Positions 43,674 to 64,000 of a stretch of DNA of 64,000 bases are shown here, piece by piece; position 1 is the first letter of the stretch, and each line of letters starts with the position of its first letter. The position numbers and the translations under genes are program-made. The stretch comes from an uncultured Christensenella sp. (GTDB lineage Bacteria; Bacillota; Clostridia; Christensenellales; UBA1242). Below the pieces are notes generated by a model that was given only the letters and a program-made list of their open reading frames with translations, was not told where the DNA came from and did not search any database. Location: the NCBI GenBank assembly GCA_949292875.1, contig CASFBJ010000004.1, positions 15,903-79,902 on the forward strand, read 5' to 3'.

Positions 43674-44588
43674 ATGAGATATATAAGAACATGGAAAATG
43701 CAAAATTATAAATTACAAGACATTTTAGAACTTGCAAGTAGAGATAAAAATAAGCTGGTTAAAAGAACGGAGAATAGGTACAAGGACAGTGTAATAAGAG
43801 TTGCAAAATATATAGCAAAAAATAATTATAGCATTGTATGTGTATCTGGACCATCAAGTTCTGGTAAAACTACGACTTCAAATATAATCACTAAAAAACT
43901 TGAAGAGTTTGGAAAATCTGCCTTAGTTGTTTCTATGGATAATTTTTTTATAAATAGGTTAGATACTCCACTTCTTCCTGATGGTACAAGAGATTATGAC
44001 AATATAAATGCCGTTAATATTGAACTTTTTAAAAAATGTATGGATGAACTTATAGATACTGGTTCAACAAATATGCCTATCTACGATTTTATTAGCGGGG
44101 TAAGACTAGATGATGCCTGTTGCGTAAAGATAAAAAGTAATACGGTAATTATAGTAGAGGGGTTGCACGCTCTTAATCCTATGTGTATAAGTGAAAAGAT
44201 GAAAACAAGAACTTTAAAAATGTATGTTTGTCCTCAAAGCGGATTTATACAACCTAATGCAAATATAACTCCGGAAACTTTAAGACTTACAAGGCGTATG
44301 GTTAGAGATTTTTATCACAGAGGACATAGTGTGAAGGATACTGAAGCTATGTGGAAGAATGTTAGAGAAAAAGAAGATGTATTTGTAGTGCCATATAAAG
44401 CAGATGCAGATTTTATTATAGATACTACGCATATGTATGAGCCACTTCTTTACGAACACGAACTTTTAAATATTTCGCAAAAAGATGCTGATGCGTTGAA
44501 GTATTTGAACTATTATCTGTTAAATTCTAACTTTTCTAAAAATTACATTTCAAAAGATTCTCTCATATGGGAATTTTTGGGAATATAG
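43674..44588 (+). CDS. Uridine kinase / nucleoside kinase family P-loop protein (start uncertain, 43617-43698)
   Basis: GPSSSGKTT, SMDNFF, IIVEGLHALNP, RL.RRMVRD...RG, E...V.PY. Confidence 0.85.
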   Translation: MRYIRTWKMQNYKLQDILELASRDKNKLVKRTENRYKDSVIRVAKYIAKNNYSIVCVSGPSSSGKTTTSNIITKKLEEFGKSALVVSMDNFFINRLDTPLLPDGTRDYDNINAVNIELFKKCMDELIDTGSTNMPIYDFISGVRLDDACCVKIKSNTVIIVEGLHALNPMCISEKMKTRTLKMYVCPQSGFIQPNANITPETLRLTRRMVRDFYHRGHSVKDTEAMWKNVREKEDVFVVPYKADADFIIDTTHMYEPLLYEHELLNISQKDADALKYLNYYLLNSNFSKNYISKDSLIWEFLGI

Positions 44589-44641
44589 TTACCAACTAAA
44601 GTAAAAAGCAATTAAAGCACTTTATTAAACGAGGTATAGAT

Positions 44642-47600: not shown

Positions 47601-50600
47601 AAATAACATTTACGAAAAATCCTGCAACTAGTCAAACTATAACAGTTCTTATACAAGGATTTGCTAGTACGCTTAAGTATGTCTTTAGACTAGATAACAA
47701 CATAAAGATTAGTTACAAAGATGTACCATCTATGTTTAATACAAGCATAAATGAGAATGGACAAAGCATTCAGAATAGAGTAGTAATGACTCTATACAAT
47801 GGTGTATATTATCCAACAATTGTTTACACTAGTAGAACTAGTAACCAAAATACCATTAACTTGAATGACATTATAGATGTTTCTTGCTTAGGTGGAGAAG
47901 CAGACTTATCTAAAATGGTATACAAGATAATAAGCGGAATGGACATAGTTAGCATTTCACAAACAGGTAGTGAAGCAAAACTTTTGACAATTGGGGGCAG
48001 GTATGTAGCAAGGCCTACAATCATAAGCATACAAGTGTATGAAGAAGGTGGGCAAGGTTCATCTATTACATTTAGTTTTTTGGCAGTACCTGATATAATG
48101 CTAAATAGTCAAGTTTTGCAAAGTACGCATAAGTTAAAATTGACCGCAGACAACAAAATTATGGACGGCGGAAATGATGGGTTTGAGATTGGCAAGACTG
48201 ATGCAACTGTATTTATTGCTGAAAGTTATGTAGTTTCAAATGCGGGCGAGCATATATATGACTTAAATAGTGCGGGCGATATAAATGTAAATCTACTTTT
48301 GAAAAATGATGGAAATTCAACTACTACGTTCTATCTAAGAGATTTTGCCAAAATAGCAATAATGTCAGAGCAAGAAGATTTTGCATCATTTATAAATGGT
48401 ATAAGTTCTTCACATGGAATAAGAAATATAGAATTTAGTTGGAAAAAGTATGCAGACACTTCTAATGTTAGTTATGTAGGTCTTACAATCAATAATAATA
48501 TTTTGCAAATATCAACGGCTTCACTTTTAACAAATAAATATTTGCCTATATATATTAGACTAATATTTATTGAGGGCGTGTATATAGAAGTACAAGCAAA
48601 TATAACGATAAATCCTTATTATAGCATTGAATTTAATCTAGAAAATCCTGCAGTAAAACAAGCAGTTGATTGGGCAAATCAAAACAAGTACGCAAGTGTA
48701 ACTGAAGGTAAAAACGCTATAGTTATGTATAATACTCAAACTCTTCAGTTTAAAGATATGCTAAAAGTAAAGAATGATGATACATATAGTTACATAAATA
48801 GTTTCAATTATAACTTGCAAGAAAATCCAAACAACATGATTAAATTGCAAAATGCAACAGTTCCGACTTCAGCACAAGTGCTTGCACAAGTTTTCAATGA
48901 ATTGAAATATGCAAAAGTTGGAGTTTCATACAAGGGTGTTGCTACAGGTTTTGAAATTATAATCATAGTTATAGATAATGTGGATGTGGAAAAAGGTTTA
49001 GAAGAAAACAATATTGAAGGCGTAGTAAATAAGGGAAGCGTAGATGCAAAAGATGCGCCAAAAATAAAATCTAATGTTGTATTTAGTCTAAACGATATGT
49101 ACAAACTTTACAATCTAAGCAGTGGTACAAATATATCATTACAATTTAGTGTAGGAAATGCGGAAGCGGTTAGATATGTAAGCATAAATAACGGAACTAT
49201 TTCATTCAAAGACACAGCAGAAGATATATTAGTTCAAATAGATATAAGCACAAACTTGAAGTATCTAGATGATGAGGGAAATGTTCAAGAGTTAAAATGG
49301 ACTAGATACTTTATGCTACAAAAGACGCAACAAGTTACAGTAACATATCCTTTTGAAAACAATGCAAGTATTTTCACAGAGATATATCCAGATAATGAAA
49401 AATATGTAAATAATAATCCAGATAATTACAAAACTGGTGTAAATGGATATATAAGAGTTAAAGCAAATGATGTACTTAAGTTAAGTGAAATGATATCTGC
49501 AATAGACACAAATACGAATCAAGATATATGGAATAGACTTCTATTTACCGTACAAGAATATGACATTGTTACTCAAAATTGGAAAAATAGTTCATTATAC
49601 AGTGTTACAGGTAGAGATTTTAGCATTCCTTCTACGTTTAACAAAGAAACATATACTCGTATACATATAACAAGTACGGGCGGTGTAGATGCTTATGTAA
49701 ATGTATTGCTAAGTACTCAAGATAATGCAATGCCAAACTTAAGCATGGGGTATCCTAGCGATAAAACTCATATAAGCACAGGTGATGGAAAGCAATATGA
49801 ATATAGAGATAAGGCATTTGCAGGAACAGATGAGATTTCACTTATGTCTTATGATAGCAATGTAAAAGTAACAAGACTAAGTATAGGTAATGAAAGCCTA
49901 ACAAGAGAAAGATTGTATTTGTCTTGCAAAATTACAGGCATGAATAGTATGCAAGAAATAACCGTTCCAGGAATAACTGCAATAATAGAAAATGGTAAAC
50001 TTAAAGTTACGAAAGATGAAAACTATACGGGTGTAGATTTTGTTGTTCGTGTATATGTGAGAACAGATTATGGTTTCTATATGGAGCACAATGATTACAG
50101 GACATACAATATCTATTATGGAAATAATATAAGCATATTACCTACAAGTGAAATGCAAGATGGCGTGCATATGGAACTACAACTAAATGAGGAAGATACA
50201 TCAAAAAATATAATTGACTTAGATTCACTTTTTGATGTAATAGTAGTTGACGGCACACCTATAAATGTAACTATAGATAATTATGGAATCAAAGCAGAAG
50301 GTGGAACTTTTATATACAATGCGTATGTAGACTCGTTAGGTAAAGTGCTTTTAGACTTAAATAACAATAAGACTGAAATACCTGTAGAAGGTATAAAAAT
50401 AATTATAACGCTAACTTTACAAGGTGTTTCTTGCGACTTTGTAATAAAGGTGTTACCCAGTAGCGCAACCATAGACAATGCTGACGGAAGCGTAAATAGC
50501 GCAGAAAATCCCGCAAGCCTTGCTTGTGATGATGCTGGAAATATTACAAAAACAAATTCAATTAGCACATTTTCATTAGATGGCACTACAAAAGATGGTA

Positions 50601-53600
50601 CAGATTCTATAACAGTTACAAAAGAAGATGTAACTTATAAAGGATTAGATGATGTTGTATTATCTTATGAATGGTTACAAGAAACAGGGTTTACTATCAC
50701 TCCAGATAATGAGTTAGACCCTACTTCTTGGACTATAACTACAAACATTAAAGTGTATGAGCCAACTTTAAAAACATTGTATCTTGTACTCAAAAATAGC
50801 GAAACTATTGTTAGAAAAGTTGCATTTTATGTAATGATTTATCCTACATACAAGATAGAAGTACAAGAAAATGCAAATGTACAAGTTTCTGGTGATGTGC
50901 GTTTTGCAGAAGCGTACTCTGGTGCTATATACAATACTAATCATAACTCTAGTCCGTTGCAGTTTAACTTTTTCAAGACTTCTAGCGGAAATAACTATGC
51001 ATCAACTTTAGAAAATGCTTTTGTATTTTCATTTGACTTACTAGACATAAATGGCAACTTTGTTAGAGCGTTGTATTTAGAAAATGGTGTAGTGTATTTT
51101 GACAATACTAAAGCAAAAATATTTGGCGAAATAAAAGGCAATGTTTTTCACTCATATATAAGTGCAGAAGATTACATTTTGCGTATTAATGTAAAAGTAA
51201 GTGGTAGCAATTCTACAAAATTAGGTTATAGTTTTCAACAAATTATAGTAAAGTTTGATGCAAATCTAACACCGTCAAATGTAATAGTTAAGAGTGAAAA
51301 TAATCAAGCAAATACCCCAACTAATCCTATTATGCTAAAAGGTTCTGGTGTAGATATCCTTAACTACATAACATTTAATCTATTTTCATCATCTAGTTTA
51401 AGTGATGTTTATTTGCAAAATGGTGCTTTTGTTAGCAAAAATCTTTTTGATTTCTTTACTCATACAAGTAATACTGTGCAAAGTGAAGATATACTTCTTC
51501 TTAATGAAGTGGATAATAAATGGATACTTACAAAAAATACAAAATATGTTACTTCTGAAAATGTAGTTCAAGAAATGACACTTTATCTATTTGGCGCAAA
51601 AATGACAGTTATATATGTATCTATTCCAAGAGATTTTGCATACACTTTTGATAGTACATTTACCACTATGTATGCAAGCGACAGCCTAGATTTAAAAAAT
51701 CTTGCAAATTCATTTGTAGGTGAAAGCGGAAGTGAATTGCATGGTGGTACTATATCATATAGCGTTATAGCAAGGTCCGTAGGTGAAGTTAGCGGTATAA
51801 GCATAGCAAATAACATACTTACAATAAGCGACAATAAAGACAAGAGCCAAGAATTAGTTTTACTTGCTAAATATGTATTAGAAAATAAAGTGCATACAGC
51901 AAAAACAGTTATAAATGTTTTGCCTGAGTACACGCTTACATCAAATCAAGATATTTATTATATGGAAAAAGATGCACTAGATGCCGATTTTGTAAAAGAA
52001 AATTTTACATTCACTTATGGCGGACAATCTTTAAACTTAGCAAACTATAATATAGAGATAATAAAATCTGGAAAAGATTTATCTATAGAAAGTGGAGTAG
52101 CGTTTGCAAACTATGCAACTATAAATGTGAAAGACAAAACTGCAAATAATGTACTCGCTTCTAGCAGTGTATTTGTGGTGTTTAATGAAAATAATGTGGA
52201 ATATAAGGAAAAAATTATTCAAGATAACCTAACTGCTGGAACAGGCTTCACTTTACAAAGTTACATAGGCGAGTTCTTTATAGGTGAAGAAAAGTTAAAC
52301 TTTACTTCTTTTGAAACTTATTCAATAAGTCTTGGTAAAGCAGACCCAGAACTAATTCCTTGCGAAGGAAACATACTTAAGACTGAAAAATCTTATGAAG
52401 AAGTTATGCAATATGTAGTTGTAAAAGCAGAATTAAATGTAAATGGCGAAGTTGCACCATATTATGGCATTATTTCTATAAGACTTTATCCTACTGTAAA
52501 CCTAAATGCTATGTACACATACAATGCACAACAAGTTTCAGTATTTAAGGCATATCAGTCTTATAACCTAAATTCGTATATTATTCCTACATCAAATAGT
52601 ACATCTACAAACGAAGATGTAGTGAGTGGTAAGACTGACTATACTTTCCACCTTTACGATTTGAATGGTAACCCTGTAACAGAAAATATGAATTCATACT
52701 TTACAACCGAGAGAAAAGTAAGTATTGCAGGACAGGAAAAATATGTATTGTTTGACAATAGCAAATGGTATGTAAGTGATAATAAGACTATAGATGAAAA
52801 CGACAAAGAAGTTACCGATTACAATGGAGAAAATAGACTATGGTTTGATGGTCAATATTATGACATTATATACAATATTGCATTTGACATATCTGCTTTA
52901 GGCTACTCTATGCTTATAGATGCAAAGTATTCGTTTAAAGGCGACACAGAAAATCATATAAGCACATACTATTTCCTTAAAGTAGATAATATGGACTTAA
53001 ATATTACGCCAACTAGTGAAAAACAAGTTTTAAGCGAAGGCGATACTTTAAACTGGAAAAACTTTATTAGCGATTCAGACGGCACTATTCAAAGCCTTTT
53101 AAGTTCAGGTAAAATAACAAGTGTTACTTATGAGGCAATAGGTTCTTATTATGATATAAATGAAGAAAATAATACAATCATAAATACTTGCAACCTTTAC
53201 TCTGCAAATGTTAGCGTTATTATTAGTTTCCTTTTTGCAAATGGTAGTACATTCTTATACGCTGCAGACTTTGAACTCTCTAGCGTCTTGCAAGTATCTG
53301 CTATCAAAAATAGCGTTACTAACGAATACATTACAGAGTACACATTTTCATCTACAAATATAGACAATATTTTAGATTATATCAATTATCAAGTGCCTAC
53401 AAATAATGTATTTAAAGACTTTGCATTGCTAGATAGTTTGTCTATATCCGTAGGCAATGGTACAAGCATAGAACAAACTTTTGAGTATAAGATTGCATTA
53501 AATGAAGAAAATAATTATACATTTGTTACATATAACAATGATGAACCTGTATATGGCACTGAAAGTGACAATGATTATTATACGGTGACTATTTCTGGAA

Positions 53601-56600
53601 ATAAGGATAGCGGAATTTCAAGAATAAGCATATCTACTAAAGAAAGAGTGGTAGTTGGTACATTCTTTAATCTTACTTACTCATTTAAGGGTGGTAATCA
53701 AGAAAAAAATGTTCAAATAAAAACTACTAAGGTTACCACAACGGACAACTTTAGCGCAGAGATTATAAATGGCGATGCTTATCTTAAAAAAGGCGAGAAA
53801 TTAAATCTACTAAAAGATATTTCTTACAACAATGGTTCAATAAATGCAGAAAGTGAAAAAGACAACTTTACTTTCTATGTTGCAGATGATACGCTATTTT
53901 CTATAGATGAAGATTATAATTTAATAGCAAATGTAGATAGCATTGACGACATTAAATCATATCTTTTCATAAACTATCACAATACATCTGCAGGCACTTA
54001 TCATACGGCAACTATTGCTATCACTCTACAAAAAACTATAGATTTAGGAAAGGTTCAATCATCTAATGAAACAGGTTTCCCTACTTTAAATGATGATAGA
54101 GTAGAACCTGTAGATGGTGGACTTACAGGCTATAACCTTATTGTTAAGTCTGGAAGTGGAGATACGCAAAAAGAAAGTAAAAGAGGCGGTAAAGTTTTTG
54201 GTACACTATTTGATAAATATGCTTCTTACGATAGTGACACAAAAAAGATAACATTAAAACAAAATTTTACTACAAGTGTATACTTACAAGTTTATCAAGA
54301 GTTTATATTTACAAGTAGCGGACAAAAGTTTGTTTTAGCAAATAATTTCTCATCAAGTTCTACCAGTGCGCCTACACTAACTTGCGATAAGTCTCTAACT
54401 TCTGAAAATGGCATATATGTCCTTGCACTAAGCGCTGGTGAAAGTGCTACATTTAGCGTTACTGGTGCTACAAGTATAAGTACTGCATATCATAGTGCAT
54501 ATGATAGTGAGGATAATGGAGAAACTTTAACTTTTAGTGGTGCTAAAGTTGCTGTAAAAAGTGGTGTGCAAAATGTAGATATCCCTATCGTAGTTACAGC
54601 AACAAGCGAAACAGGCGATGTATACCATTTCTTAGTGTATGTGTATGTTGCTCCTACTATAAGTTATGGACAAGCAAATGTAGATAATATTGCTGGCGTT
54701 TTACAAGCAGGTGGTAATTTTGCTAGTGGTTATGATTATTGGATAAAGGCAAACGGAGAAACTTTAGTAAAGGAAGAAGCAAGCAAAGTAGATAAAAATG
54801 CAAAATTTTATATAGGAGTGAAGTTACAAGGCACAAGCGGAAATGTAGATGTAGACTTTGACCTATATTCTGTATCACATTCTTATGATATAAAAATAGG
54901 TGGTGTTATAGGTACAAACGATACATTACAATTCTATAACAATGTATCTATAAACGAGGCAATTACGCTTATACTAGACGGAGAGAATGCAAGCGGTTAT
55001 ACTTTTAGTTTATCATACAACGACTTATCAAGTGACAAAGGAACAATACAAATAGCAGAAAATATATTAACTATTACTCCTAATCAAAAAGCAACAGGAA
55101 CATACAATTTTACAATTAAAGCGAAAAAAGGTGATGTTACATACGAAAAACCTTACACTATTACTTTCAAAGATGCTTATGCAGTAGAAAATATAACACA
55201 TACTATAAACATGGAGTACAACAATGGCGTAATATATGAAGGTAACTATACATTGTTAGACTTAAACAATTTCTCATATACAACCGCCGGCGGAGTAGAG
55301 TATACATACGATTCTTCAAGAAGCAATGAATTTTCTAATAATGATATTACAAAAATTGTTTCTTTAGATACAATAAATAACTCAGTCAAGACTAATCAAT
55401 ACCCTACAGCAAAATGGACTTACACAAATGGATATATTACCGGCATTAGTTATACACAGCAAGTTTTTACTATAACTATACCAGTTAAGACAGAAAGCGG
55501 AGTAACAAATACTATAAAAGTAGAAGTAACCGTGAGTAGAGGTGGTATTAGTTATAGCGATTCAACAGGTATATACACAAATGCACTTGAATATGAAACG
55601 AGTACTCCTGATAGTAAAGAAGTGAGTGAAGGGGATATAAAGAAAATTTACAGTTTTCCATTCTGTGAAACTTATAAAGTAAATAACGCTTGGGGAATGT
55701 ATAATTTTCAAGGTTTTTATATAAATAATTCTAAATTAGATTACAAACCAAGCGCTTGGAACTCAGGAACAACAACATTTGCCATAGACATTGAAAATGC
55801 ACAAGATTACAATATTACTGTAACAAGTTTAGGCGATAAATCTTTTGAACCAGAATTAGATTTTACAGTTAATTATAATGGAATAAAGATTTCAAACAAT
55901 CTAGATAAGCCAAGAGAAATTATTATAAAAGTAAAGATAACAAGAATTTGCAAACCTTCAATTGGTGAAACAAATACACAGAATTTTTATTATCTTATAC
56001 CTATTAAATTTACTAGTGGAACAAAAATCGCATATAAAAATAGTTCTACAACTTGTAAACAAGGTAAAACAGTAACTTTATCTCATGAAGATAAAAATGA
56101 CTATAACCATATAGAAGTATACATTCCTAGTGGTAAGGATACTGAAACTTATCTTAAAGATATGTTTGATGTTGATACATTAAAAAATACAGAAAGTGGA
56201 TATGTAGTAACAAAAGAAGTTGATGGTAAGACAATAACATATTATATTACTGTAAAAAATGTAACTATAAGGTCATCTAGTAATAAGCCTACTAGTGGAA
56301 GTGAAATTGCATTAGTTAACGAAAATGGAGATTGGGCTATCAAAGATAACTATGTAGGTGTAAGTTACTCTTATAGTAGTGAAAGTGGTTTTACGATAAA
56401 TGCAATATCATATAGTAAAGATAAAGAAAGAGAAGACTTAAGTGTAACAAATGATAGTTTTGCTGGTAATATATCAAACCCATATACTTTAGAAAATAGT
56501 ATCATATATGAAGATAAATATAGCGAAAATGTAGAGAACAAGCAAATAGATAATGGAACACAAATAGGTTACAAAAATGTATATGGAAACTACATCTTAC

Positions 56601-58396
56601 ACAAAGGTTACATTCTTGTATATGCAAACCAGCAAGTAAACCTAGTATTTACAAGAGAAGAAAAGAAACCTGTCAGTGCAAATCTTGGACTTACTTCAAG
56701 TAATGATTACCCAGGACTAATCACTATAAATAGCGATAATACTACATTAAGCATAAGTGGGACTGCAAATGAAAATTTCCCATATGGAATAAAGTTAGGT
56801 AAAAATGATATATATGTGATTATGCAAAACATAGCAAATACTAAGTTTGAACATGTGTTACCTACACAAGAGATTGCTATATTTTCAAACGAAAGTAGGA
56901 TACTAAACTTTAATGAATTAGGAGAGTTTTACATAGTAAATAGTGATGGAAGCAAAACGCAAATAGTAGAATATAGACAATTAGAATTTGCTTCTGGAAA
57001 TGATAGCGTACTTAAAGTGGTTGGGCAAAATTTAGAAGCAGGCTTTGTACTAGAAGATACAAGCGTTACATTGCAAATAACCATATCAACAGGTGTAGGC
57101 GTTTCTTATGTTGCGTACTTAGATGTACTTATTAAATCTTCTATCCAGATAGAAACAGAGAAACTAGTAGATGTTCCGCTTGGAAATACTGTAGACTTAA
57201 ATGCACTATATACTATAACGCAAGATGGTCAAGAAATAGATTTAAGTGATTTAAGCGAAAATGCAAGTGTATCATTTAGTATAGAAGGCGACGATACTTT
57301 CACAGGAGATTTACTAGATGTCGCATACATTATGAGTAATGCAGGTAAACTTCTTAGAGTAAATATTACATTTACAGTTGGAGAAATACAAGTAGAAAAA
57401 GCAGTAATGCTTAGTATAGCAAATGAACTTTACGAACTTAACGAGATAGAAGATGTATTTACTCTATATGCAGGTCAAACTGTAGACTTAGAGTATATAA
57501 ATCTTAAATTGCAAGATGCATTAGGCTATAGTCTAGGAAAAGGTTATATATCTTCTATAACATATGAAAGTGGAGATAGTAAGTCAAATGCTTATGTCAT
57601 AGATAGTACAAATAAAACTATTACAGCGAAAAATGTTTTTGCAGATGTTTCTACAAGTGTGGTTATATATTATACATTAGGAGAAGGCGAGAGTGCTATA
57701 ACATATACATGTCCTATAGACCTATATCTTTTACCTAGTTTTACACTAAAAGATACTTTAGGTAAAGACTTAAAGAATATAGTGTATAGTTCTTTAGTAG
57801 TAAATACTCCACTAACTATAGGAGATATACAAAACAATTTCCATATTAAAGATAGATTTAATAATGATGTAGACTTATCTTTATTTGGTTTTGAGTTTAG
57901 TAAAGAGAATGGGTACACTAGCATTGTAAACGCTGATGGTGGTGAAATACAGCCTACTTATACAGAGTACACTATGAAAGATATTACGGTATATCTAGAT
58001 GTGTATCATATGCAAAATGGTGAGAAAGATTACAAAGTTGCATCTATACCAGTAGTTATACAAAGAGTGGATAAAGATAGGACACTAGTAAAACTAACAA
58101 GCGATATAATATATGCAAATGCAACGAGCATTTCGCTTGAAACTATCTTTGAAAATTATGTAAATTACATTAATGCAAACGGTGATAGAGTTACTACTGT
58201 AAGGCGTGAGTGGTTTGATGTAATCATAAACTATGCTGGCGTAGCATTAGATGAACAAAGCGAGCTAGATGCAAGTATAGTAAACAACAATACTGTATCT
58301 GGTATACAAAATACCGACTTAGTAGAGGTAACTATAAAGGATAAAGATACTAAAGAAGAAATAACTATAAGCATACTACTACAAAGGCAACCTTAA
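44642..58396 (+). CDS. Giant 4584-aa extracellular protein with N-terminal signal anchor and tandem beta-rich (Ig-like) units
   Basis: Uninterrupted 13.75-kb ORF, RBS GAGGT; single TM at residues ~23-46; recurring beta-strand motifs; no LPXTG, SLH or C-terminal TM. Confidence 0.85.
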   Translation: MSKYDYYNKNKKEKLFSWSYFGKMVAVIFACFIGVFGLTIFVMWLAGSFDEKHIPPDGIKIELENQELEKINGKDYLIPKIEVNEDGVSTFSITVKDAMLSLEEGKDPSTRPSVNELALSVDVDNERVIKLLSKECKIGEPIVFEIVKNSDGFFNGGFAGITVRSFDGVYGTDNINVFVDVPVDKVENNLKSPNTAQESIDDIVYNILSVGDILQVFKPKYTPTRSSNPTILANGTALKADKKYIYKIEYQRKLPNGDTIWEDIDSTGTSEVNKIVKWKESAKKDALVAVKTGIFRTSCMTYSTYKEQENDDGSVVQVQSDYTYFKINEVNYESIQSEVTRHIFEYVLQGVSSEADLKPFRIYLNSAKSAQELSSLNAINLGLNITLPSGYNQDKNALLNALKDVYLTYENEVEVSKYYKVVGEKNVDNGNLYPIKDITTEYNEFTEYYYEVYLISKQIGELAFKFNIKNTEKNSTLTHIVNFSMKENHSSISFIPTQDGQTYGKYDSLVVKPSVDELGKDIMLMDVSVDTSLDGDNAHYVDLNKLVKNTPEETGKVPSYWLVRYFVYLGRTQEEAYNQLMFVQNGIMGLDDDIFEIKTGEVYGVEILDGIFSPKAYESYKIYAVLMQTDINGEPVIYPVTGTYTYKSCEMNVNVKVQVNSVQTTILDDKFSELYVNELKENYSYYLHIQALINGGVVSDEVLANYVKDMFVTAIDTNTGTAQNIPVSIGDITYLNTEGNEGYYAKIDVTTMSAESSRNIKFVVNYQASSTKVEEFGATDSYIVKETAVRGVEITSPSIDNIVLKASWEAGKVIWSYTVGDNEVKLVNGNELILTVFVNGENKLYTVTSSNSTSVKVQPYGSDYKLVIGSVIDGNSQVTIRAESIENPNFYDEVVISFEVPKLEFGLGATFANENGIYVDNASGEIKKQDGSGIYNHVVYKGQEIDLLSYNDEDRITATLNIPNDCKDLLQFSFEVVTDYATIEGSKITFTKNPATSQTITVLIQGFASTLKYVFRLDNNIKISYKDVPSMFNTSINENGQSIQNRVVMTLYNGVYYPTIVYTSRTSNQNTINLNDIIDVSCLGGEADLSKMVYKIISGMDIVSISQTGSEAKLLTIGGRYVARPTIISIQVYEEGGQGSSITFSFLAVPDIMLNSQVLQSTHKLKLTADNKIMDGGNDGFEIGKTDATVFIAESYVVSNAGEHIYDLNSAGDINVNLLLKNDGNSTTTFYLRDFAKIAIMSEQEDFASFINGISSSHGIRNIEFSWKKYADTSNVSYVGLTINNNILQISTASLLTNKYLPIYIRLIFIEGVYIEVQANITINPYYSIEFNLENPAVKQAVDWANQNKYASVTEGKNAIVMYNTQTLQFKDMLKVKNDDTYSYINSFNYNLQENPNNMIKLQNATVPTSAQVLAQVFNELKYAKVGVSYKGVATGFEIIIIVIDNVDVEKGLEENNIEGVVNKGSVDAKDAPKIKSNVVFSLNDMYKLYNLSSGTNISLQFSVGNAEAVRYVSINNGTISFKDTAEDILVQIDISTNLKYLDDEGNVQELKWTRYFMLQKTQQVTVTYPFENNASIFTEIYPDNEKYVNNNPDNYKTGVNGYIRVKANDVLKLSEMISAIDTNTNQDIWNRLLFTVQEYDIVTQNWKNSSLYSVTGRDFSIPSTFNKETYTRIHITSTGGVDAYVNVLLSTQDNAMPNLSMGYPSDKTHISTGDGKQYEYRDKAFAGTDEISLMSYDSNVKVTRLSIGNESLTRERLYLSCKITGMNSMQEITVPGITAIIENGKLKVTKDENYTGVDFVVRVYVRTDYGFYMEHNDYRTYNIYYGNNISILPTSEMQDGVHMELQLNEEDTSKNIIDLDSLFDVIVVDGTPINVTIDNYGIKAEGGTFIYNAYVDSLGKVLLDLNNNKTEIPVEGIKIIITLTLQGVSCDFVIKVLPSSATIDNADGSVNSAENPASLACDDAGNITKTNSISTFSLDGTTKDGTDSITVTKEDVTYKGLDDVVLSYEWLQETGFTITPDNELDPTSWTITTNIKVYEPTLKTLYLVLKNSETIVRKVAFYVMIYPTYKIEVQENANVQVSGDVRFAEAYSGAIYNTNHNSSPLQFNFFKTSSGNNYASTLENAFVFSFDLLDINGNFVRALYLENGVVYFDNTKAKIFGEIKGNVFHSYISAEDYILRINVKVSGSNSTKLGYSFQQIIVKFDANLTPSNVIVKSENNQANTPTNPIMLKGSGVDILNYITFNLFSSSSLSDVYLQNGAFVSKNLFDFFTHTSNTVQSEDILLLNEVDNKWILTKNTKYVTSENVVQEMTLYLFGAKMTVIYVSIPRDFAYTFDSTFTTMYASDSLDLKNLANSFVGESGSELHGGTISYSVIARSVGEVSGISIANNILTISDNKDKSQELVLLAKYVLENKVHTAKTVINVLPEYTLTSNQDIYYMEKDALDADFVKENFTFTYGGQSLNLANYNIEIIKSGKDLSIESGVAFANYATINVKDKTANNVLASSSVFVVFNENNVEYKEKIIQDNLTAGTGFTLQSYIGEFFIGEEKLNFTSFETYSISLGKADPELIPCEGNILKTEKSYEEVMQYVVVKAELNVNGEVAPYYGIISIRLYPTVNLNAMYTYNAQQVSVFKAYQSYNLNSYIIPTSNSTSTNEDVVSGKTDYTFHLYDLNGNPVTENMNSYFTTERKVSIAGQEKYVLFDNSKWYVSDNKTIDENDKEVTDYNGENRLWFDGQYYDIIYNIAFDISALGYSMLIDAKYSFKGDTENHISTYYFLKVDNMDLNITPTSEKQVLSEGDTLNWKNFISDSDGTIQSLLSSGKITSVTYEAIGSYYDINEENNTIINTCNLYSANVSVIISFLFANGSTFLYAADFELSSVLQVSAIKNSVTNEYITEYTFSSTNIDNILDYINYQVPTNNVFKDFALLDSLSISVGNGTSIEQTFEYKIALNEENNYTFVTYNNDEPVYGTESDNDYYTVTISGNKDSGISRISISTKERVVVGTFFNLTYSFKGGNQEKNVQIKTTKVTTTDNFSAEIINGDAYLKKGEKLNLLKDISYNNGSINAESEKDNFTFYVADDTLFSIDEDYNLIANVDSIDDIKSYLFINYHNTSAGTYHTATIAITLQKTIDLGKVQSSNETGFPTLNDDRVEPVDGGLTGYNLIVKSGSGDTQKESKRGGKVFGTLFDKYASYDSDTKKITLKQNFTTSVYLQVYQEFIFTSSGQKFVLANNFSSSSTSAPTLTCDKSLTSENGIYVLALSAGESATFSVTGATSISTAYHSAYDSEDNGETLTFSGAKVAVKSGVQNVDIPIVVTATSETGDVYHFLVYVYVAPTISYGQANVDNIAGVLQAGGNFASGYDYWIKANGETLVKEEASKVDKNAKFYIGVKLQGTSGNVDVDFDLYSVSHSYDIKIGGVIGTNDTLQFYNNVSINEAITLILDGENASGYTFSLSYNDLSSDKGTIQIAENILTITPNQKATGTYNFTIKAKKGDVTYEKPYTITFKDAYAVENITHTINMEYNNGVIYEGNYTLLDLNNFSYTTAGGVEYTYDSSRSNEFSNNDITKIVSLDTINNSVKTNQYPTAKWTYTNGYITGISYTQQVFTITIPVKTESGVTNTIKVEVTVSRGGISYSDSTGIYTNALEYETSTPDSKEVSEGDIKKIYSFPFCETYKVNNAWGMYNFQGFYINNSKLDYKPSAWNSGTTTFAIDIENAQDYNITVTSLGDKSFEPELDFTVNYNGIKISNNLDKPREIIIKVKITRICKPSIGETNTQNFYYLIPIKFTSGTKIAYKNSSTTCKQGKTVTLSHEDKNDYNHIEVYIPSGKDTETYLKDMFDVDTLKNTESGYVVTKEVDGKTITYYITVKNVTIRSSSNKPTSGSEIALVNENGDWAIKDNYVGVSYSYSSESGFTINAISYSKDKEREDLSVTNDSFAGNISNPYTLENSIIYEDKYSENVENKQIDNGTQIGYKNVYGNYILHKGYILVYANQQVNLVFTREEKKPVSANLGLTSSNDYPGLITINSDNTTLSISGTANENFPYGIKLGKNDIYVIMQNIANTKFEHVLPTQEIAIFSNESRILNFNELGEFYIVNSDGSKTQIVEYRQLEFASGNDSVLKVVGQNLEAGFVLEDTSVTLQITISTGVGVSYVAYLDVLIKSSIQIETEKLVDVPLGNTVDLNALYTITQDGQEIDLSDLSENASVSFSIEGDDTFTGDLLDVAYIMSNAGKLLRVNITFTVGEIQVEKAVMLSIANELYELNEIEDVFTLYAGQTVDLEYINLKLQDALGYSLGKGYISSITYESGDSKSNAYVIDSTNKTITAKNVFADVSTSVVIYYTLGEGESAITYTCPIDLYLLPSFTLKDTLGKDLKNIVYSSLVVNTPLTIGDIQNNFHIKDRFNNDVDLSLFGFEFSKENGYTSIVNADGGEIQPTYTEYTMKDITVYLDVYHMQNGEKDYKVASIPVVIQRVDKDRTLVKLTSDIIYANATSISLETIFENYVNYINANGDRVTTVRREWFDVIINYAGVALDEQSELDASIVNNNTVSGIQNTDLVEVTIKDKDTKEEITISILLQRQP

Positions 58397-58422
58397 CATA
58401 ATAAATATTTTAAAATATGGTA

Positions 58423-58450
58423 TTGACAACGAAAAAAAATGTGCTATACT
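58423..58450 (+). promoter_or_regulatory. Strong sigmaA promoter
   Basis: TTGACA-16-TGc-extended TATACT; followed by the inverted repeat AAAAGTAC-acga-GTACTTTT (58460-58479). Confidence 0.7.
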
Positions 58451-58501
58451 TATTATAGTAAAAGTACACGAGTACTTTTCTACATAAAGGAGAAAATAAA
58501 A

Positions 58502-58900
58502 ATGAAAAATAAAGGTATAATTGCTGGTGCTATCGCTAGTATAGGAGCAACTGTTGCTACATATCTAGGACTTGCAGAAGTTCAAAAAGAAGGCTTAAAG
58601 CAAGAAGCTATGTTAAATTATATACAAGAGATAAATCCTAATCCAAACTATACAGCACAAGAAAAGTTTGATAGTTTATTAGAATCAGTTGCAAATGGTG
58701 GTTCATCTTGGGCAAAAGAAATTTTAGATGATGTTTATCAAGCAGGTGCAGAAGGAGTAAACGCTGCATATACAGCAGCACCTACACTAGTAGGAACTTG
58801 CGCAGTTGCTGCAGCTTGTATAGGGGCACTTTTATATTACAGACATAGACAAAAAGCAAAAGAAGCAGTTGCTCAAAACGCAGAAAGTCTTGATATGTAA
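58502..58900 (+). CDS. Small Ala/Gly-rich protein with two hydrophobic segments (132 aa, start MKNKGII)
   Basis: RBS AAGGAG; N-terminal hydrophobic helix and C-terminal TM plus RHRQK. Confidence 0.8.
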   Translation: MKNKGIIAGAIASIGATVATYLGLAEVQKEGLKQEAMLNYIQEINPNPNYTAQEKFDSLLESVANGGSSWAKEILDDVYQAGAEGVNAAYTAAPTLVGTCAVAAACIGALLYYRHRQKAKEAVAQNAESLDM

Positions 58901-58967
58901 TAAACAAAAAGTATAGATTTTATATAGTAATAAGTAATTATATAAAAGTTTCATTATTTTGAAATAT

Positions 58968-58998
58968 AAAAAAAGAGAGATAGTTTTCTCTCTTTTTT
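58968..58998 (+). terminator. Terminator
   Basis: AAAAGAGAGA-tagttt-TCTCTCTTTTTT. Confidence 0.75.
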
Positions 58999-59185
58999 GT
59001 ATATTAAAGTTTAATGCTACATATAATAAAGGTATTTTAATTAAGATAACAAATGAGTGATATATAAAATGTTTGTTATGTGCTATATTACTTTAAGTAA
59101 TGTACATAACTTTGTATACGGTAAGCAATGTATATAACATTTTAAAAAGCGTATTTTTATTACGAGTTAGCAGATTTTTATTTTT

Positions 59186-59214
59186 AAAAAAGAGAGATAG
59201 TTATATCTCTCTTT
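59186..59214 (-). terminator. thyX terminator
   Basis: AAAGAGAGATA-gtta-TATCTCTCTTT overlapping the stop codon. Confidence 0.7.
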
Positions 59215-60376
59215 CTTCGTTTATGCCTAACTTAAAACCGCAAGGGGAAGCGCATTTGTAATTAGGGAAAGTGCATCTTGCACCATTTCTGTAAGGTTCT
59301 AAGTCTTTTGCAAGTTCGCTATCTCTTGCTTTTAATGAAAAGTAGTATTTGTCTAATGTTTTATTTACTTGTTGTGCGCTTTCTAGTTGTGTATGAGTAC
59401 ATTTTCTTTTTTTGAGTTTGTCTACAAAAGTTTGTAAATTTCCGCTTTCATTTATTTGTACCATGGTTGCTTGTGGAATGCGTGAAGAAACTTGCTCGCA
59501 GTCTTGTATCCATTCGTTATATAAGGTTGTATCATTTGCTATGATAGGCGGTACATAAAAAGTATTGTTATCTAGTAAAGTAATGCTATAGTCTATACTT
59601 CTATGTCTTTGTATCTGTGCAAACTGTGCATAAGAACCCTTGTAAGTTGTAAAGTATGAGTATCCAAAATGTTCTTCACGGCTTAAGTCCCTATCTTCAA
59701 AAAGGCTAAAAGTCCTATTTTCAGGGTTTGTCATAAGCGTTTGGTCTATAAGGTTGCACGCCTTATTTATACTAGAGCAAAAATCTTGCATAGCAGGTTT
59801 AAGCATGTCATATATCTTGTTATTTTGCTCATTTTGTATTGCTTTTTGCATAAATCCATATATGTAGTTAAGTTGTCTATAAGATAAAGTATGTACCATA
59901 GCGGTAGGAGTGAAAATAGAAGTAAGATACCTTGCATTTTCTTGTGCTAACTTTGCTATCTTATTATCCGTAAAGAAATTAGGGTATTTTTCTTTGTACT
60001 TATCACTTATTTTTTTCTCAAAAATCTCTTTCCACTTGTCATATAGTTCTTGCTCGCTGTTTGTTAGTTTCATTTTAGTATAACGAGCAGATTTTTCACT
60101 TGTAGAATAATCTTTTTCATTATTTAGTATCATAGCAAGTGCTTTAGGCATATCTTCTATGTAAAAGTTTATTCTAGCATGGTCATATACGCTATGGTGT
60201 CCATTTGTTTTAGTAAGATTTATCCTTTTTAGCGTTTTTTCTCTATCTTCGTTTTCTATCTTTTCATAAGTGGACGGCATATAACATATACCAGCAGATT
60301 TTCCGCAAAAAATCTCTATTTCATCTTTATTTGGCGTATAATTGTTATTTGTACAACCTATAACTTTTATTTTCAT
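59201..60376 (-). CDS. thyX: Flavin-dependent thymidylate synthase (ThyX/Thy1), two-domain form
   Basis: GHHSVYDH, EKSARY, AQE.ARYL, QIQRHR, QLE, C-terminal Cys cluster. Confidence 0.75.
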   Translation of the reverse strand: MKIKVIGCTNNNYTPNKDEIEIFCGKSAGICYMPSTYEKIENEDREKTLKRINLTKTNGHHSVYDHARINFYIEDMPKALAMILNNEKDYSTSEKSARYTKMKLTNSEQELYDKWKEIFEKKISDKYKEKYPNFFTDNKIAKLAQENARYLTSIFTPTAMVHTLSYRQLNYIYGFMQKAIQNEQNNKIYDMLKPAMQDFCSSINKACNLIDQTLMTNPENRTFSLFEDRDLSREEHFGYSYFTTYKGSYAQFAQIQRHRSIDYSITLLDNNTFYVPPIIANDTTLYNEWIQDCEQVSSRIPQATMVQINESGNLQTFVDKLKKRKCTHTQLESAQQVNKTLDKYYFSLKARDSELAKDLEPYRNGARCTFPNYKCASPCGFKLGINEEREI

Positions 60377-60410
60377 AAATCACCTTTTGCATTAGTATAT
60401 TAATACTAAA

Positions 60411-60439
60411 ATTTTATCATAAAATGCTTAAAAAGTCAA
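60411..60439 (-). promoter_or_regulatory. thyX promoter
   Basis: TTGACT-17-TAAAAT with TGn extension. Confidence 0.7.
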
Positions 60440-60729
60440 TATAACTATGAAAATAGGGTGCGCAAAAACTTTACTTATAATATAAAAAAATTTGTAATGT
60501 TTTTAGTCTAAATTTTCCTATAATAAGGCATATATGTGTGACAAAATACAAGAAAAGGAATGTATATAATGAAATAGATAGATATATAGTTATAAATATT
60601 TTAATTAACTAAAATCATTATTTATATTTCTTACATTGTACTATGTATGTATATGTAGATAAAAGTTTTTAGAAAAAATAATTATTGTAAATAGTTGACT
60701 AATGCAAAATATTTGTAGTATTATAAAGT

Positions 60730-61050
60730 TGAGTTTAAGAATAAGGTTTGTATAGCCATAATATTCTTATACTCATATAATCTATGCAATAGACTTCAAA
60801 GTAGGTCAAGCGTAGATTGTGGCGGAAAGTCTTTTTTGATATGCTTTGTAAACTATTTTTTTGTGTTTTATATAGTGCATAGTGCACAACAAATAAAGTA
60901 AAAAATTTTTTAGATATATGGTGCAGAAATCATAACTAAAAATAAAAAAACTTTTTTAAAAATAAAACACACAAGTAAAAAATATACAAACGATGAAATA
61001 AGGTTTTCCGCAAAGTAAGGTGCTTAAAGCATGACTTTAAGTGCCTTTTC
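60730..61050 (+). ncRNA. Candidate ~320-nt structured non-coding RNA
   Basis: Promoter TTGACT-18-TATTAT (60695-60724); two 5' hairpins, a ~190-nt rod closed by a 12-bp helix, and a terminator; G.U pairs consistently favour the + strand. Confidence 0.6.
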
Positions 61051-61350
61051 TAATCAATGAAATAACATAATATAAAACTTTTTTATGCCAAATATATTTT
61101 CTTGATAATACTTTATTGAATTTTCTTAAGTATTAAACGGTAATTATTTAAAAGTTTTAAACTATTTTAGGTAACAAAGAAAATGATAAAATCATATATG
61201 TAACTACTTGTATAAGTAATAATTTTTTAAGTATATGCTAAAAGCATATCAAAAGTAGTTAAAATGATGTATTTATGCCGTTAAAATACTAAAAAATTAA
61301 TTTAATTTTAAAAAAATGATAAAAATTAAAATAAAAAAGGAGTTGCAAAA

Positions 61351-63150
61351 ATGGGAATATTTAAAGAGTTTAAGGTAAAAGATTACATATTTCTTTTCAT
61401 AATAGTTGCGCTAGTTGTGGGGCAAGTATGGTTAGATTTGAAGATTCCTAATTATATGAGTGAGATTACAGTTCTTGTGCAATCTGGAGTGCAAGATACA
61501 ACTGACATTTGGATAGCAGGTGGTAAAATGCTTGCGTGTGCATTAGGTTCTGCAATATTTGCTATAATTGTTGGCTACTTTTGTGCAGTTATATCTGGTA
61601 GAATAGGAAAGAGAATGAGAGATGAGATATATAGTAAAGTTCAATCTTTTGGAATGAATGAGATACACAAGTTTAGTATACCGAGTTTAATCACAAGAAG
61701 TACAAACGATATATCTCAAGTGCAATTTGCAACTGCTGTTGGTATGCAAGTTATAATTAAAGCGCCTATTATGTCTGTTTGGGCAATATGCACAATATTA
61801 GGTAAAAGTTGGGCTTGGTCGCTTGCAACCGCTTGTGCTGTTATTATTTTACTTCTTGTTATTGCAATAATAGTGGTATTTGCTTTACCTAAGTTTAAAA
61901 AAATACAGACATTGACAGACAATCTAAATCGTGTTACTAGAGAAAACATAACAGGTTTAAGAGTTGTAAGGGCCTATAATGCTGAAGATTTTGAAGCGAA
62001 CAAATTTGAAAAAGCAAACGAAGAACTAAATCATACGAACTTAGTAGTAAATAGGCTAATGGCACTACTTTCACCTGTAATGATGTTTATGATTAGTGCT
62101 TTATCGCTCGCTATATATTGGATAGGTGCTTATCTTATAAATAGTGTAGGTATGGCGGAAAGACTCACTGTATTTGGAGATATGGTTGTATTTATGAGTT
62201 ATGCAATGCTCATAGTTATGTCATTTGTCATGCTAACAATGGTATTTATCATTTTACCTAGAGCAATGGTTGCTTTTAGAAGAGTAAAAGAAGTATGTAA
62301 TACAGAACTTAGTATACATGAAATAAGTGAGAGTAAAAAAGCACAAAGTAGTGAGCAAGGTGTAGTAGAATTTAGAAATGTAAGTTTCAAGTATCCTAAT
62401 GCAGAAAAATACATACTTAGAAATGTAAGTTTTAAAGTAAACAAAGGCGAAACTATAGCGTTTATTGGTTCTACAGGAAGTGGAAAATCTACGCTTATTA
62501 ATCTTGTACCTAGGTTTTACGATTGTACAGAAGGAGAAGTGCTTGTTGATGGTGTAAATGTAAAAGATTACACGCATTTTGACTTAATGAACAAGATAGC
62601 GTATGTTTCTCAAAAAGCGGTACTTTTTTCAGGGACTATAAAATCTAACATTACTTATGGTGAAAATGACAAAGAAGAAGTAAGTGATGAACTTATGGAA
62701 AAGGTTTTACGCATTAGTCAAGCAGATGAGTTTGTGTACTCAAAAGAGAAAGGTGTAGATAGTGAGATTAGTCAAGGTGGAGCAAATGTAAGCGGTGGTC
62801 AAAAGCAAAGGCTTTCTATTGCAAGGGCTCTTGCAAGAGATGCTGAGATATGTATATTTGATGATAGTTTTTCCGCATTAGATTATAGGACGGATAAAAA
62901 TCTTAGAAAAGCGCTAAAAGAGCAAATGCCTAATCTTACAAAATTAATAGTTGCGCAAAGAATAGCGACAATACAAGATGCAGATAAAATAGTTGTTTTA
63001 GATAGTGGCGATTTGGTGGGTTATGGAACTCATGATGAACTTATGCAAAGTTGTGATGTATATAAAGAGATAGCGTTGTCACAATTTTCTCAAAGCGAGT
63101 TAGGGTTAGATGATAAAAAAGCGAAGAAGGAGGCAAAAGGCAATGAGTAA
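61351..63150 (+). CDS. Heterodimeric multidrug-type ABC exporter, degenerate-site subunit (TM287/EfrA/LmrC-like)
   Basis: TMD plus NBD: GSTGSGKST, VSGGQKQR, Walker B ICIFDD (E replaced by D), switch Q in IVAQR. Confidence 0.93.
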   Translation: MGIFKEFKVKDYIFLFIIVALVVGQVWLDLKIPNYMSEITVLVQSGVQDTTDIWIAGGKMLACALGSAIFAIIVGYFCAVISGRIGKRMRDEIYSKVQSFGMNEIHKFSIPSLITRSTNDISQVQFATAVGMQVIIKAPIMSVWAICTILGKSWAWSLATACAVIILLLVIAIIVVFALPKFKKIQTLTDNLNRVTRENITGLRVVRAYNAEDFEANKFEKANEELNHTNLVVNRLMALLSPVMMFMISALSLAIYWIGAYLINSVGMAERLTVFGDMVVFMSYAMLIVMSFVMLTMVFIILPRAMVAFRRVKEVCNTELSIHEISESKKAQSSEQGVVEFRNVSFKYPNAEKYILRNVSFKVNKGETIAFIGSTGSGKSTLINLVPRFYDCTEGEVLVDGVNVKDYTHFDLMNKIAYVSQKAVLFSGTIKSNITYGENDKEEVSDELMEKVLRISQADEFVYSKEKGVDSEISQGGANVSGGQKQRLSIARALARDAEICIFDDSFSALDYRTDKNLRKALKEQMPNLTKLIVAQRIATIQDADKIVVLDSGDLVGYGTHDELMQSCDVYKEIALSQFSQSELGLDDKKAKKEAKGNE

Positions 63151-64000
63151 CAAGGTAAAAGAGCAGGCGCGTTCTAATCATATGGCTGGTGGGAAAAGAA
63201 TGAAAGTCATAGAAAAGCCAAAAAGTATGAAAAGTGCATTAAGGAAGTTGTTAGGATTTTGCAAACCTTATTCATTTTGGATAATAGTAGCAATAGTATT
63301 TGCTGTTGGTGGTTCCATTTGTTCGCTAATAGGACCAAACAAGTTAAAAGAGATAACAGACATAATATCTAATGGTATATTTTTACCAAGTGGGGTAGAT
63401 ATACCGGCAGTTACACACATTGCGATAATACTTGTAGCAATATATGGCATAGGTTTATTAGTTAATTATGTGCAAGGTTATGTCATGGCAACAGTAACGC
63501 AAAAAATTACCAAAAATATGCGTACAAAGATGAGTGATAAAATCAATAAAATTCCGCTTAGTTATTTTGATAAGACTACATACGGAGATGTGCTTAGTCG
63601 TGTAACGAATGATGTGGACTTAATAGGGCAGACATTAAATAATAGTATATCTTCATTAGTTGGTGCGGTTGCATTGTTTTTAGGTTCGCTTATAATGATG
63701 TTTGTTACAAACTGGATAATGGCGCTTGCTGGTATATGTGCGACGCTATTAGGATTTATATTAATGAGTGTGATTATTGCTCGTTCACAAAAGTATTTTG
63801 TAATGCAACAAGAAAGTCTAGGTGAACTCAACGGGCATGTGGAAGAAGTGTATACAGGTCATGTAGTAGTGAAAGCATACAACGCAGAAAAGCAAGAAAA
63901 AAGGGTTTTTGACAACATAAATAATAAACTATACACAAGTGCTTGGAAATCTCAATTTCTGTCAGGGCTTATGATGCCACTTATGTCATTTGTAGGAAAC
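63143..64000 (+). CDS. Heterodimeric ABC exporter, second subunit (truncated by the window end)
   Basis: ATG overlapping the upstream stop; translates as MSNKVKEQ... with PLSYFD....GDVLSRVTNDVD and LNGHVEE.Y.GH; open to the window end. Confidence 0.9.
   Translation, partial: MSNKVKEQARSNHMAGGKRMKVIEKPKSMKSALRKLLGFCKPYSFWIIVAIVFAVGGSICSLIGPNKLKEITDIISNGIFLPSGVDIPAVTHIAIILVAIYGIGLLVNYVQGYVMATVTQKITKNMRTKMSDKINKIPLSYFDKTTYGDVLSRVTNDVDLIGQTLNNSISSLVGAVALFLGSLIMMFVTNWIMALAGICATLLGFILMSVIIARSQKYFVMQQESLGELNGHVEEVYTGHVVVKAYNAEKQEKRVFDNINNKLYTSAWKSQFLSGLMMPLMSFVGN

Follow-up and report, generated by a model that had tools for sequence, protein, structure and literature searches.

A candidate stable structured RNA upstream of an ABC exporter in an uncultured Christensenella species

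RESULTS

Locus and predicted fold of the candidate RNA

We analyzed a stretch of 64 000 nt (hereafter the window) of the forward strand of contig CASFBJ010000004.1 (positions 15 903–79 902; assembly GCA_949292875.1) from an uncultured Christensenella sp., and focused on a spacer of 975 nt located between a thyX-like gene and a gene pair encoding an ATP-binding cassette (ABC) exporter. A previous sequence-only reading had proposed that this spacer contains an unannotated structured RNA with its own promoter and terminator. The local DNA contains 29% G+C, and the candidate RNA is present in one copy in the organism's own genome, as determined by BLAST. Our analyses lead us to favor, with somewhat better than even confidence, an independent + strand gene for a stable non-coding RNA of ~290–320 nt. 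The features of the candidate, in positions of the window, are as follows.

60695–60724, + strand: putative sigma-A-type promoter (–35 element TTGACT at 60695–60700, 18-nt spacer, –10 element TATTAT at 60719–60724)
60730–60743 / 60762–60775, + strand: helix P1, 13 pairs and one U.U mismatch (mean pair probability 0.96–0.97)
60745–60748 / 60754–60757, + strand: apical helix of P1, GGUU/AGCC, 4 bp, loop UGUAU
60776–60787 / 60810–60821, + strand: helix P2, 12-bp outer helix with three U.G pairs (pair probability 0.93–0.98)
60792–60796 / 60803–60807, + strand: inner helix of P2, GACUU/AGGUC, 5 bp, loop CAAAGU
60822–61011, + strand: rod of 190 nt (alone, –44.5 kcal/mol, z = –5.2)
60822–60871 with 60962–61011, + strand: lower stem of the rod, 43 pairs, closed by the 12-bp helix GCGGAAAGUCUU/AAGGUUUUCCGC
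60872–60961, + strand: apex of the rod, an AU-rich three-way junction (strands AUA, AACAAAU and UUUAAAA; hairpins at 60875–60887 and 60895–60954)
60869–60960, + strand: two tandem 46-nt units in the apical rod, 72% alike (repeat family D1)
60746–61016, strand not carried: stand-alone RNA contigs (265 and 269 nt), one in each of two metatranscriptomes that stem from separate studies
61017–61029 / 61035–61047 (feature to 61053), + strand: 3′ hairpin, 13 bp, loop CAUGA, two G.U pairs (pair probability 0.98)

We computed the folding energy of the + strand from 60728 to 61056 and compared it with that of dinucleotide shuffles. The minimum free energy (MFE) was –91.8 kcal/mol for the actual sequence and –54.9 ± 4.6 kcal/mol for the shuffles (z = –7.96), and none of 100 shuffles folded as well; by comparison, the SRP (signal recognition particle) RNA of the same genome had a z-score of only –1.9. 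The centroid structure was identical to the MFE structure, with an ensemble diversity of 17.5. When the 3′ hairpin, which contributes –15 kcal/mol, was left out, the energy was –76.8 kcal/mol (z = –7.83). The three domains (P1, P2 and the rod) are contiguous, without linkers, and comprise ~100 bp; the mean pair probability was at least 0.78 for all helices and >0.93 for most of them (range 0.78–0.99), and 29% of the positions were unpaired. P1, P2, the rod, with its inner helices and two apical hairpins, and the 13-bp 3′ hairpin had been drawn by the sequence-only reading, and the same helices were recovered in both the MFE and the centroid fold.

The earlier argument that the G.U pairs require the + strand was also borne out. 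Among 115 pairs, 11 were G.U, and the 1 × 1 mismatches were U.U, U.U and G.G, with no A.C. The fold of the minus strand reached –65.5 kcal/mol, 26 kcal/mol worse than that of the + strand. These G.U pairs and the weaker fold of the minus strand indicate that the structure exists on the + strand only.

Transcription and abundance

The candidate was represented by a discrete contig in each of two metatranscriptomes, at 60752–61016 in run X7 (depth 8) and at 60746–61013 in run X10 (depth 7.7), which shows that the proposed RNA is truly transcribed. No RNA contig covered the flanks of the candidate in either run. Over the 20 kb from 44001 to 64000, X10 contained no further contig of the organism, and X7 otherwise contained only low-depth pieces of a giant open reading frame (ORF; depths 2–3.5) and one piece of a 153-aa ORF (depth 24.9). 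For comparison, the depth of the organism's own SRP RNA was 9.8 in X7, with no specific contig in X10, and that of its transfer-messenger RNA (tmRNA) was 35.5 in X7 and 5.0 in X10. The candidate is accordingly in the abundance class of the housekeeping RNAs SRP RNA and tmRNA. Depths close to those of these two RNAs, together with silent flanks, point to a real, stable and abundant RNA, and such a level is unlikely to be noise.

The RNA contigs start 16–22 nt past the predicted transcription start. The contig of the SRP RNA was itself truncated, by 11 nt at one end and 22 nt at the other, so these data are compatible with a true 5′ end near 60730. The accumulated RNA retains the 5′ domain (P1 and P2), which is not removed as a leader.

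Promoter, 3′ end and coding potential

The site TTGACT-18-TATTAT, which had been claimed as a sigmaA-like promoter, matched the consensus at 10 of 12 positions and was the best site on the + strand, although matches of this quality are common in the local AT-rich DNA and not rarer than in shuffles (8 found versus 10.2 expected). From this site, we infer a transcription start at ~60730–60732. A second promoter-like site in the 5′ arm of the rod, TTGTAA-17-TATATA, matched at 8 of 12 positions, under the threshold of the scan, and was attributed to chance.

At the other end, the claim of a 13-bp terminator with a U run was upheld in part. The hairpin was predicted with high probability, but the U tract that follows it is short (UUCU; UUCUAAUC past the stem) and the terminator scan made no call. 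The hairpin at 61017–61047 is a probable intrinsic terminator; it may also be trimmed off the mature RNA, as both RNA contigs end at its foot. The 3′ end of the RNA would accordingly lie between 61013 and ~61050.

With respect to coding potential, we found no ORF with an ATG start or a usable Shine–Dalgarno spacing in the candidate RNA, in agreement with the earlier statement that no convincing ORF exists. The rod contains short, hydrophobic, TTG-started frames of 21 aa, which lack a usable Shine–Dalgarno spacing and lie inside the 43-pair duplex. A toxin mRNA of a type I toxin–antitoxin system was considered and rejected, as these frames were the only ones found.

Variation among strains

A comparison that included both the RNA contigs and DNA contigs from other strains revealed six differences within the RNA.

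60744 A>C: bulge, unpaired
60749 T>G: loop of P1, unpaired
60758 A>T: internal loop, unpaired
60793 A>G: P2, A-U to G.U, which fits the + strand only
Extra A after 60957: junction strand, unpaired
61015 G>A: linker

Except for the extra A, the strains were invariant from 60797 to 61013; both promoter hexamers were identical in every strain compared, and the body of the RNA was almost invariant. Given that only 29% of the positions are unpaired, the variants mildly favor selection on the fold (P of ~0.01–0.03, as an estimate); they do not amount to covariation. The change at 60793 was present in both RNA runs and listed in no DNA run, and the DNA contigs of several strains break nearby; it is probably an allele of the strains, and may alternatively reflect RNA editing. 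In the strains of four other studies, the region just 5′ of the –35 element (60639–60701) was hypervariable, with 8–10 sites of single-nucleotide polymorphism (SNP) or insertion/deletion in 63 nt.

Search for known families and homologs

We searched the whole window against Rfam at the gathering thresholds and found nothing relevant. At E ≤ 10, the spacer (60380–61360) yielded only a chance match of a microRNA model to the 3′ hairpin and a CRISPR-repeat match with E = 8.5. The earlier failure to match any known riboswitch or other described family was thereby confirmed. BLAST searches of 60 relatives gave only AT-rich chance matches, and those of the two nearest genomes (DnaA 78% and 71% identical) gave no homolog; phage and plasmid collections contained no match. 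Searches with exact 20–22-mers found no match in species-representative genomes and a single chance match, within a GC-rich coding region, in JGI metagenomes.

We then built a covariance model (R1; 289 positions, 100 pairs) that spans the entire RNA. It detected no homolog in 40 genomes of the family, nor, under laxer filter settings, in the two nearest genomes. With filters off, a search of 19 ABC-exporter loci and their flanks gave a best score of 13.8 bits, inside a coding sequence, which is not credible. For a second model of the 5′ domain alone (R2), the best score among 39 family genomes was 22 bits, from a palindromic terminator between two genes. Judging from public data, the candidate RNA appears to be confined to one species, within the limits that the first-look filter of the genome search scores only 45–150 candidates for each AT-rich genome and that the assembly of the nearest genome is split into 140 contigs.

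Other identities were tried and rejected. The true SRP RNA gene lies at C14:49237–49505 (145 bits), with no SRP match in the window; the true tmRNA gene lies at C20:24264–24634, and the true RNase P RNA gene on contig C1 near 40510. The resemblance of GGAAAGUC in the rod-closing helix to the CR-I motif of RNase P RNA was attributed to chance. A retron RNA was also rejected, as no reverse transcriptase gene is adjacent; the search for such a gene covered only the surroundings of the candidate. Local alignments of the flanks, examined for a decayed second copy, were no better than those of shuffles. The bacterial large SRP RNA (RF01854) resembles the candidate in outline, with a long rod preceded by two 5′ hairpins, as well as in length (~270–290 nt) and abundance; the candidate differs in lacking the helix-8 motifs and in that its 5′ and 3′ ends do not pair with each other.

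Absence of canonical 6S RNA from the family

The gross shape of the rod resembles that of 6S RNA, and a 6S-like precursor had been one of the earlier suggestions. The 6S model (RF00013) detected 6S RNA in 15 of 16 sister families and in none of the 25 genomes of the UBA1242-like family; a lax repeat at E ≤ 10 on six family genomes was likewise negative (0/6). The SRP RNA model succeeded in 9 of 9 family genomes tested, indicating that AT-richness is not the cause of the missing 6S RNA. In the sister families (12 loci examined), the 6S gene mostly neighbors tRNA genes, the arrangement being tRNA-Val(GAC), 6S, tRNA-Gln(CUG) and tRNA-Glu(CUC). The genome of interest lacks tRNA-Val(GAC), and its tRNA-Gln(CUG) and tRNA-Glu(CUC) genes are located elsewhere, with no partner of 6S size; tRNA-Glu(CUC) has its own promoter. 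A hidden 6S RNA in the 187-nt gap between tRNA-Gly and tRNA-Cys was rejected, as this gap contains a terminator and a promoter (z = –1.9).

From an alignment of 12 sequences, we obtained the 6S motifs of the order (CCUG..GUGU.CG, AAACC.ACA, CGGGAG, CACCCACCUGC and ACGGCAC..GGG). None of them was found in 60728–61056, and in the organism's own intergenic DNA, CC[ACT][CG]CCTG occurred only inside tRNA genes and the tmRNA gene. A fold scan of the intergenic DNA of the genome for a hidden 6S RNA returned only terminators and gene-end hairpins, and the candidate was the only rod-like abundant RNA found in this genome. From these searches, we conclude that canonical 6S RNA has been lost in this family. 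Separately, other intergenic folds with a bias to one strand were noted at C5:18440–18800 (+), C16:7600–7950 (–), C16:55840–56180 (–) and C3:23900–24252 (–); by eye, these stretches are stacks of terminators and gene-end hairpins.

The candidate shares several characteristics with 6S RNA: it is an abundant, stable, stand-alone RNA with a ~190-nt rod that is closed by its own ends and has an AU-rich opening near the apex, and 6S RNA is the one housekeeping RNA that the genome otherwise lacks. The topology, however, is different. In the candidate, a lower stem of 43 pairs leads to an apical three-way junction with two hairpins, whereas 6S RNA has G-C clamps on either side of a central bubble of two strands. 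Pairing in the rod is also much tighter (z = –5.2) than in a genuine 6S RNA of low GC content from the order, which has a large asymmetric bubble (z = –1.4). Moreover, two hairpins form a 92-nt 5′ domain that remains on the accumulated RNA, and the candidate is not conserved even in the genus. RF00013 gave no score for the candidate at E ≤ 10, let alone one at the gathering threshold of 46.4 bits, and the whole genome was likewise negative. The candidate thus fails membership of the 6S family, and the retained 5′ domain, the tighter pairing and the lack of any 6S motif or sister homolog speak against a 6S-like precursor.

Genomic context

The genes on both sides of the spacer were annotated as follows.

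59201–60376, minus strand: thyX-like gene (Pfam Thy1)
61351–63150, + strand: first ABC-exporter gene (ORF and domain annotation)
63110 onwards, + strand: second ABC-exporter gene (ORF and domain annotation)

The exporter is of the heterodimeric ABC type and lies downstream of the candidate RNA on the same strand. No other ORF of at least 100 aa was found in 58900–61350, and no reverse transcriptase, toxin or transposase gene lies beside the candidate, whose neighbors are the thyX-like gene and the exporter. Neither neighbor is accompanied by a long spacer elsewhere: this holds for the three loci examined of the thyX-like orthologs (present in 28 of 61 genomes) and for the three examined of the exporter orthologs (39 of 41 genomes). 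In the exporter locus of the same genus, the upstream ORFs are unrelated.

Several further observations were made in this region. The thyX-like protein is 391 aa long, with the Thy1 domain at residues 23–184 followed by a C-terminal extension of ~200 aa that has no Pfam match; its relatives in the 28 family genomes are 31–54% identical. The 153-aa ORF mentioned above (58439–58900) lies downstream of a giant ORF of 4584 aa and has no Pfam match. Among the mRNA pieces that run X7 yielded for the 20 kb, that of this ORF was the most abundant (depth 24.9), and in the strain of that run, 58613–58711 within this ORF is swapped for 96 unrelated letters.

The source organism inhabits the bird/chicken gut, and its relatives by DnaA are labelled Christensenella sp. 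UBA1242, UBA6406 and Candidatus Onthoplasma. These labels place the organism in UBA1242, a reduced-genome family of the Christensenellales (PMC12306168), comprising uncultured gut bacteria with genomes of ~1 Mb that are thought to depend on partner cells (PMC12306168).

DISCUSSION

The candidate is most plausibly a species-restricted, stand-alone, structured non-coding RNA that would act in trans by binding a protein. In the model that we propose, transcription would begin at ~60730 from TTGACT-18-TATTAT, the RNA would end at the hairpin at 61017–61047 or be trimmed back from it, and the product would serve in trans as a protein-binding scaffold or decoy. Because the RNA is almost wholly double-stranded and offers hardly any accessible seed, protein binding seems likelier than the action of a base-pairing small RNA or of a cis-acting leader. 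The preservation of a 975-nt spacer is also of interest in a genome of ~1 Mb, which has little space for dispensable genes.

Two of the alternatives derive from the position and the shape of the RNA. One is a cis-acting 5′ leader, i.e. an attenuator of the ABC exporter, in which transcription stops mostly at 61017–61047 and a signal, e.g. a drug, allows read-through. Such an arrangement would resemble the bmrB-bmrCD operon of Bacillus subtilis, in which a ribosome-mediated attenuator leader controls a drug exporter: the candidate, too, ends in a hairpin and precedes a heterodimeric ABC exporter encoded on the same strand. Within the spacer, the promoter of the RNA itself is the sole strong one on the + strand, the weak U tract would permit leakage, and terminated leaders can resemble abundant small RNAs. 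In addition, a perfect 14-nt complement connects 60834–60847 in the 5′ arm of the rod with 61241–61254, ~100 nt before the start codon of the exporter, which was reproduced in 2.3% of dinucleotide shuffles; it could be due to chance or represent a cis contact in read-through transcripts. However, 300 nt separate the hairpin from the start codon, and neither a leader peptide preceded by a ribosome-binding site nor an antiterminator fold was found; the MFE and centroid structures coincide. No riboswitch or T-box was matched, and the downstream stretch 61010–61360, with the 3′ hairpin at its start, is not significantly structured (z = –1.7). The 19 exporter orthologs (45–58% identity) lack any match to R1, their upstream spacers measured 0–185 nt in the three examined, and the exporter of the same genus has its own promoter, TTGACA-17-TATAAT. 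Finally, no RNA contig covered 61017–62850 in either run. We consequently regard the attenuator, which the sequence-only reading had listed among its options, as rather improbable. A vertically inherited 6S gene (ssrS) that has been relocated, has diverged past recognition and has acquired a 5′ extension is very improbable. The absence of canonical 6S RNA from all 25 family genomes, its presence in nearly all sister families, the location of the other housekeeping RNAs elsewhere, and the abundance and 190-nt rod of the candidate would fit it. The missing model score and order-wide motifs, the three-way junction with its much tighter pairing, and the position outside the tRNA-Val/6S/tRNA-Gln array do not, and the lack of a homolog in the two nearest genomes would be unexpected for a vertically transmitted housekeeping RNA.

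A further alternative concerns function itself: the RNA may be a young, species-specific hairpin without function, or a relic or RNA part of a selfish or defence element (type I toxin–antitoxin and retron-like systems being among the options), which would have arisen from local duplications and would owe its stability merely to its double-stranded nature. Its restriction to one species, the 46-nt tandem duplication at the apex of the rod, and the lack of conserved synteny with relatives on either side would all be expected in this case, as would the hydrophobic 21-aa frames. The extreme z-score is likewise of the kind seen in long inverted repeats, unlike that of SRP RNA or true 6S RNA. On the other hand, the sequence is single-copy, matches no phage or plasmid and has no adjacent reverse transcriptase, toxin or transposase gene, and the small frames have no ATG and are buried in the duplex. 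Furthermore, the ratio of 11 G.U to 0 A.C and the structure-neutral variants among strains favor selection at the RNA level, and the abundance is level with that of SRP RNA and tmRNA. We therefore assign this alternative a low, though not negligible, probability.

Returning to an independent gene for a stable non-coding RNA, several observations count against it. The RNA contigs carry neither strand nor exact ends, so that the promoter, start and 3′ end are deduced. Run X17 contained 87% of the sampled tmRNA words and no contig of the candidate RNA, which suggests that expression, or presence in the strain, varies. The 180 nt downstream are as conserved as the RNA, whose density of SNPs (~0.016 per nt) does not fall below theirs, and a low density alone is therefore no proof. 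Because the RNA occurs in a single species, covariation is unavailable, and the case for selection on the fold comes from the G.U asymmetry and five strain variants. No strong promoter for the exporter itself lies in 61050–61350 (best match 9/12), and read-through from the promoter of the RNA may hence matter. Lastly, a decoy of the housekeeping type would be expected in the sister species, which also lack 6S RNA, and was not found there.

The candidate belongs to no described family; as it comes from a single species and has neither covariation nor a partner to show, it does not yet qualify as a new class. Ms1 RNA of mycobacteria is a 6S-like RNA of ~300 nt that binds the core of RNA polymerase and is conserved across its genus or family. 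The candidate is similar to Ms1 in its length of ~300 nt, its rod-like shape, its abundance, its restriction to a lineage and its occurrence in a host group without canonical 6S RNA; it differs in that nothing in the whole Rfam library matched it, by sequence or by model, and in its presence in one species only. Speculatively, the bound protein could be RNA polymerase, the RNA then being an independently evolved decoy of the 6S/Ms1 type in a 6S-less family, to which we assign a low probability. The corresponding history, in which the family lost its tRNA-linked 6S RNA and local duplications gave rise, by an independent origin, to an unrelated ~300-nt rod that buffers RNA polymerase, is a speculative scenario of slightly lower probability.

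The loss of 6S RNA (0 of 25 family genomes versus 15 of 16 sister families) is, for the genomes sampled, a clean case of non-coding RNA loss during genome reduction in a gut-dwelling bacterium, outside the intracellular endosymbionts for which loss of this kind has been described (PMC4779614). If the candidate does bind RNA polymerase, it would be the second independent substitute for 6S RNA after Ms1 and would explain how this family lives without 6S RNA. If another protein is bound, the RNA would provide an entry to a new ribonucleoprotein in an organism that has not yet been grown.

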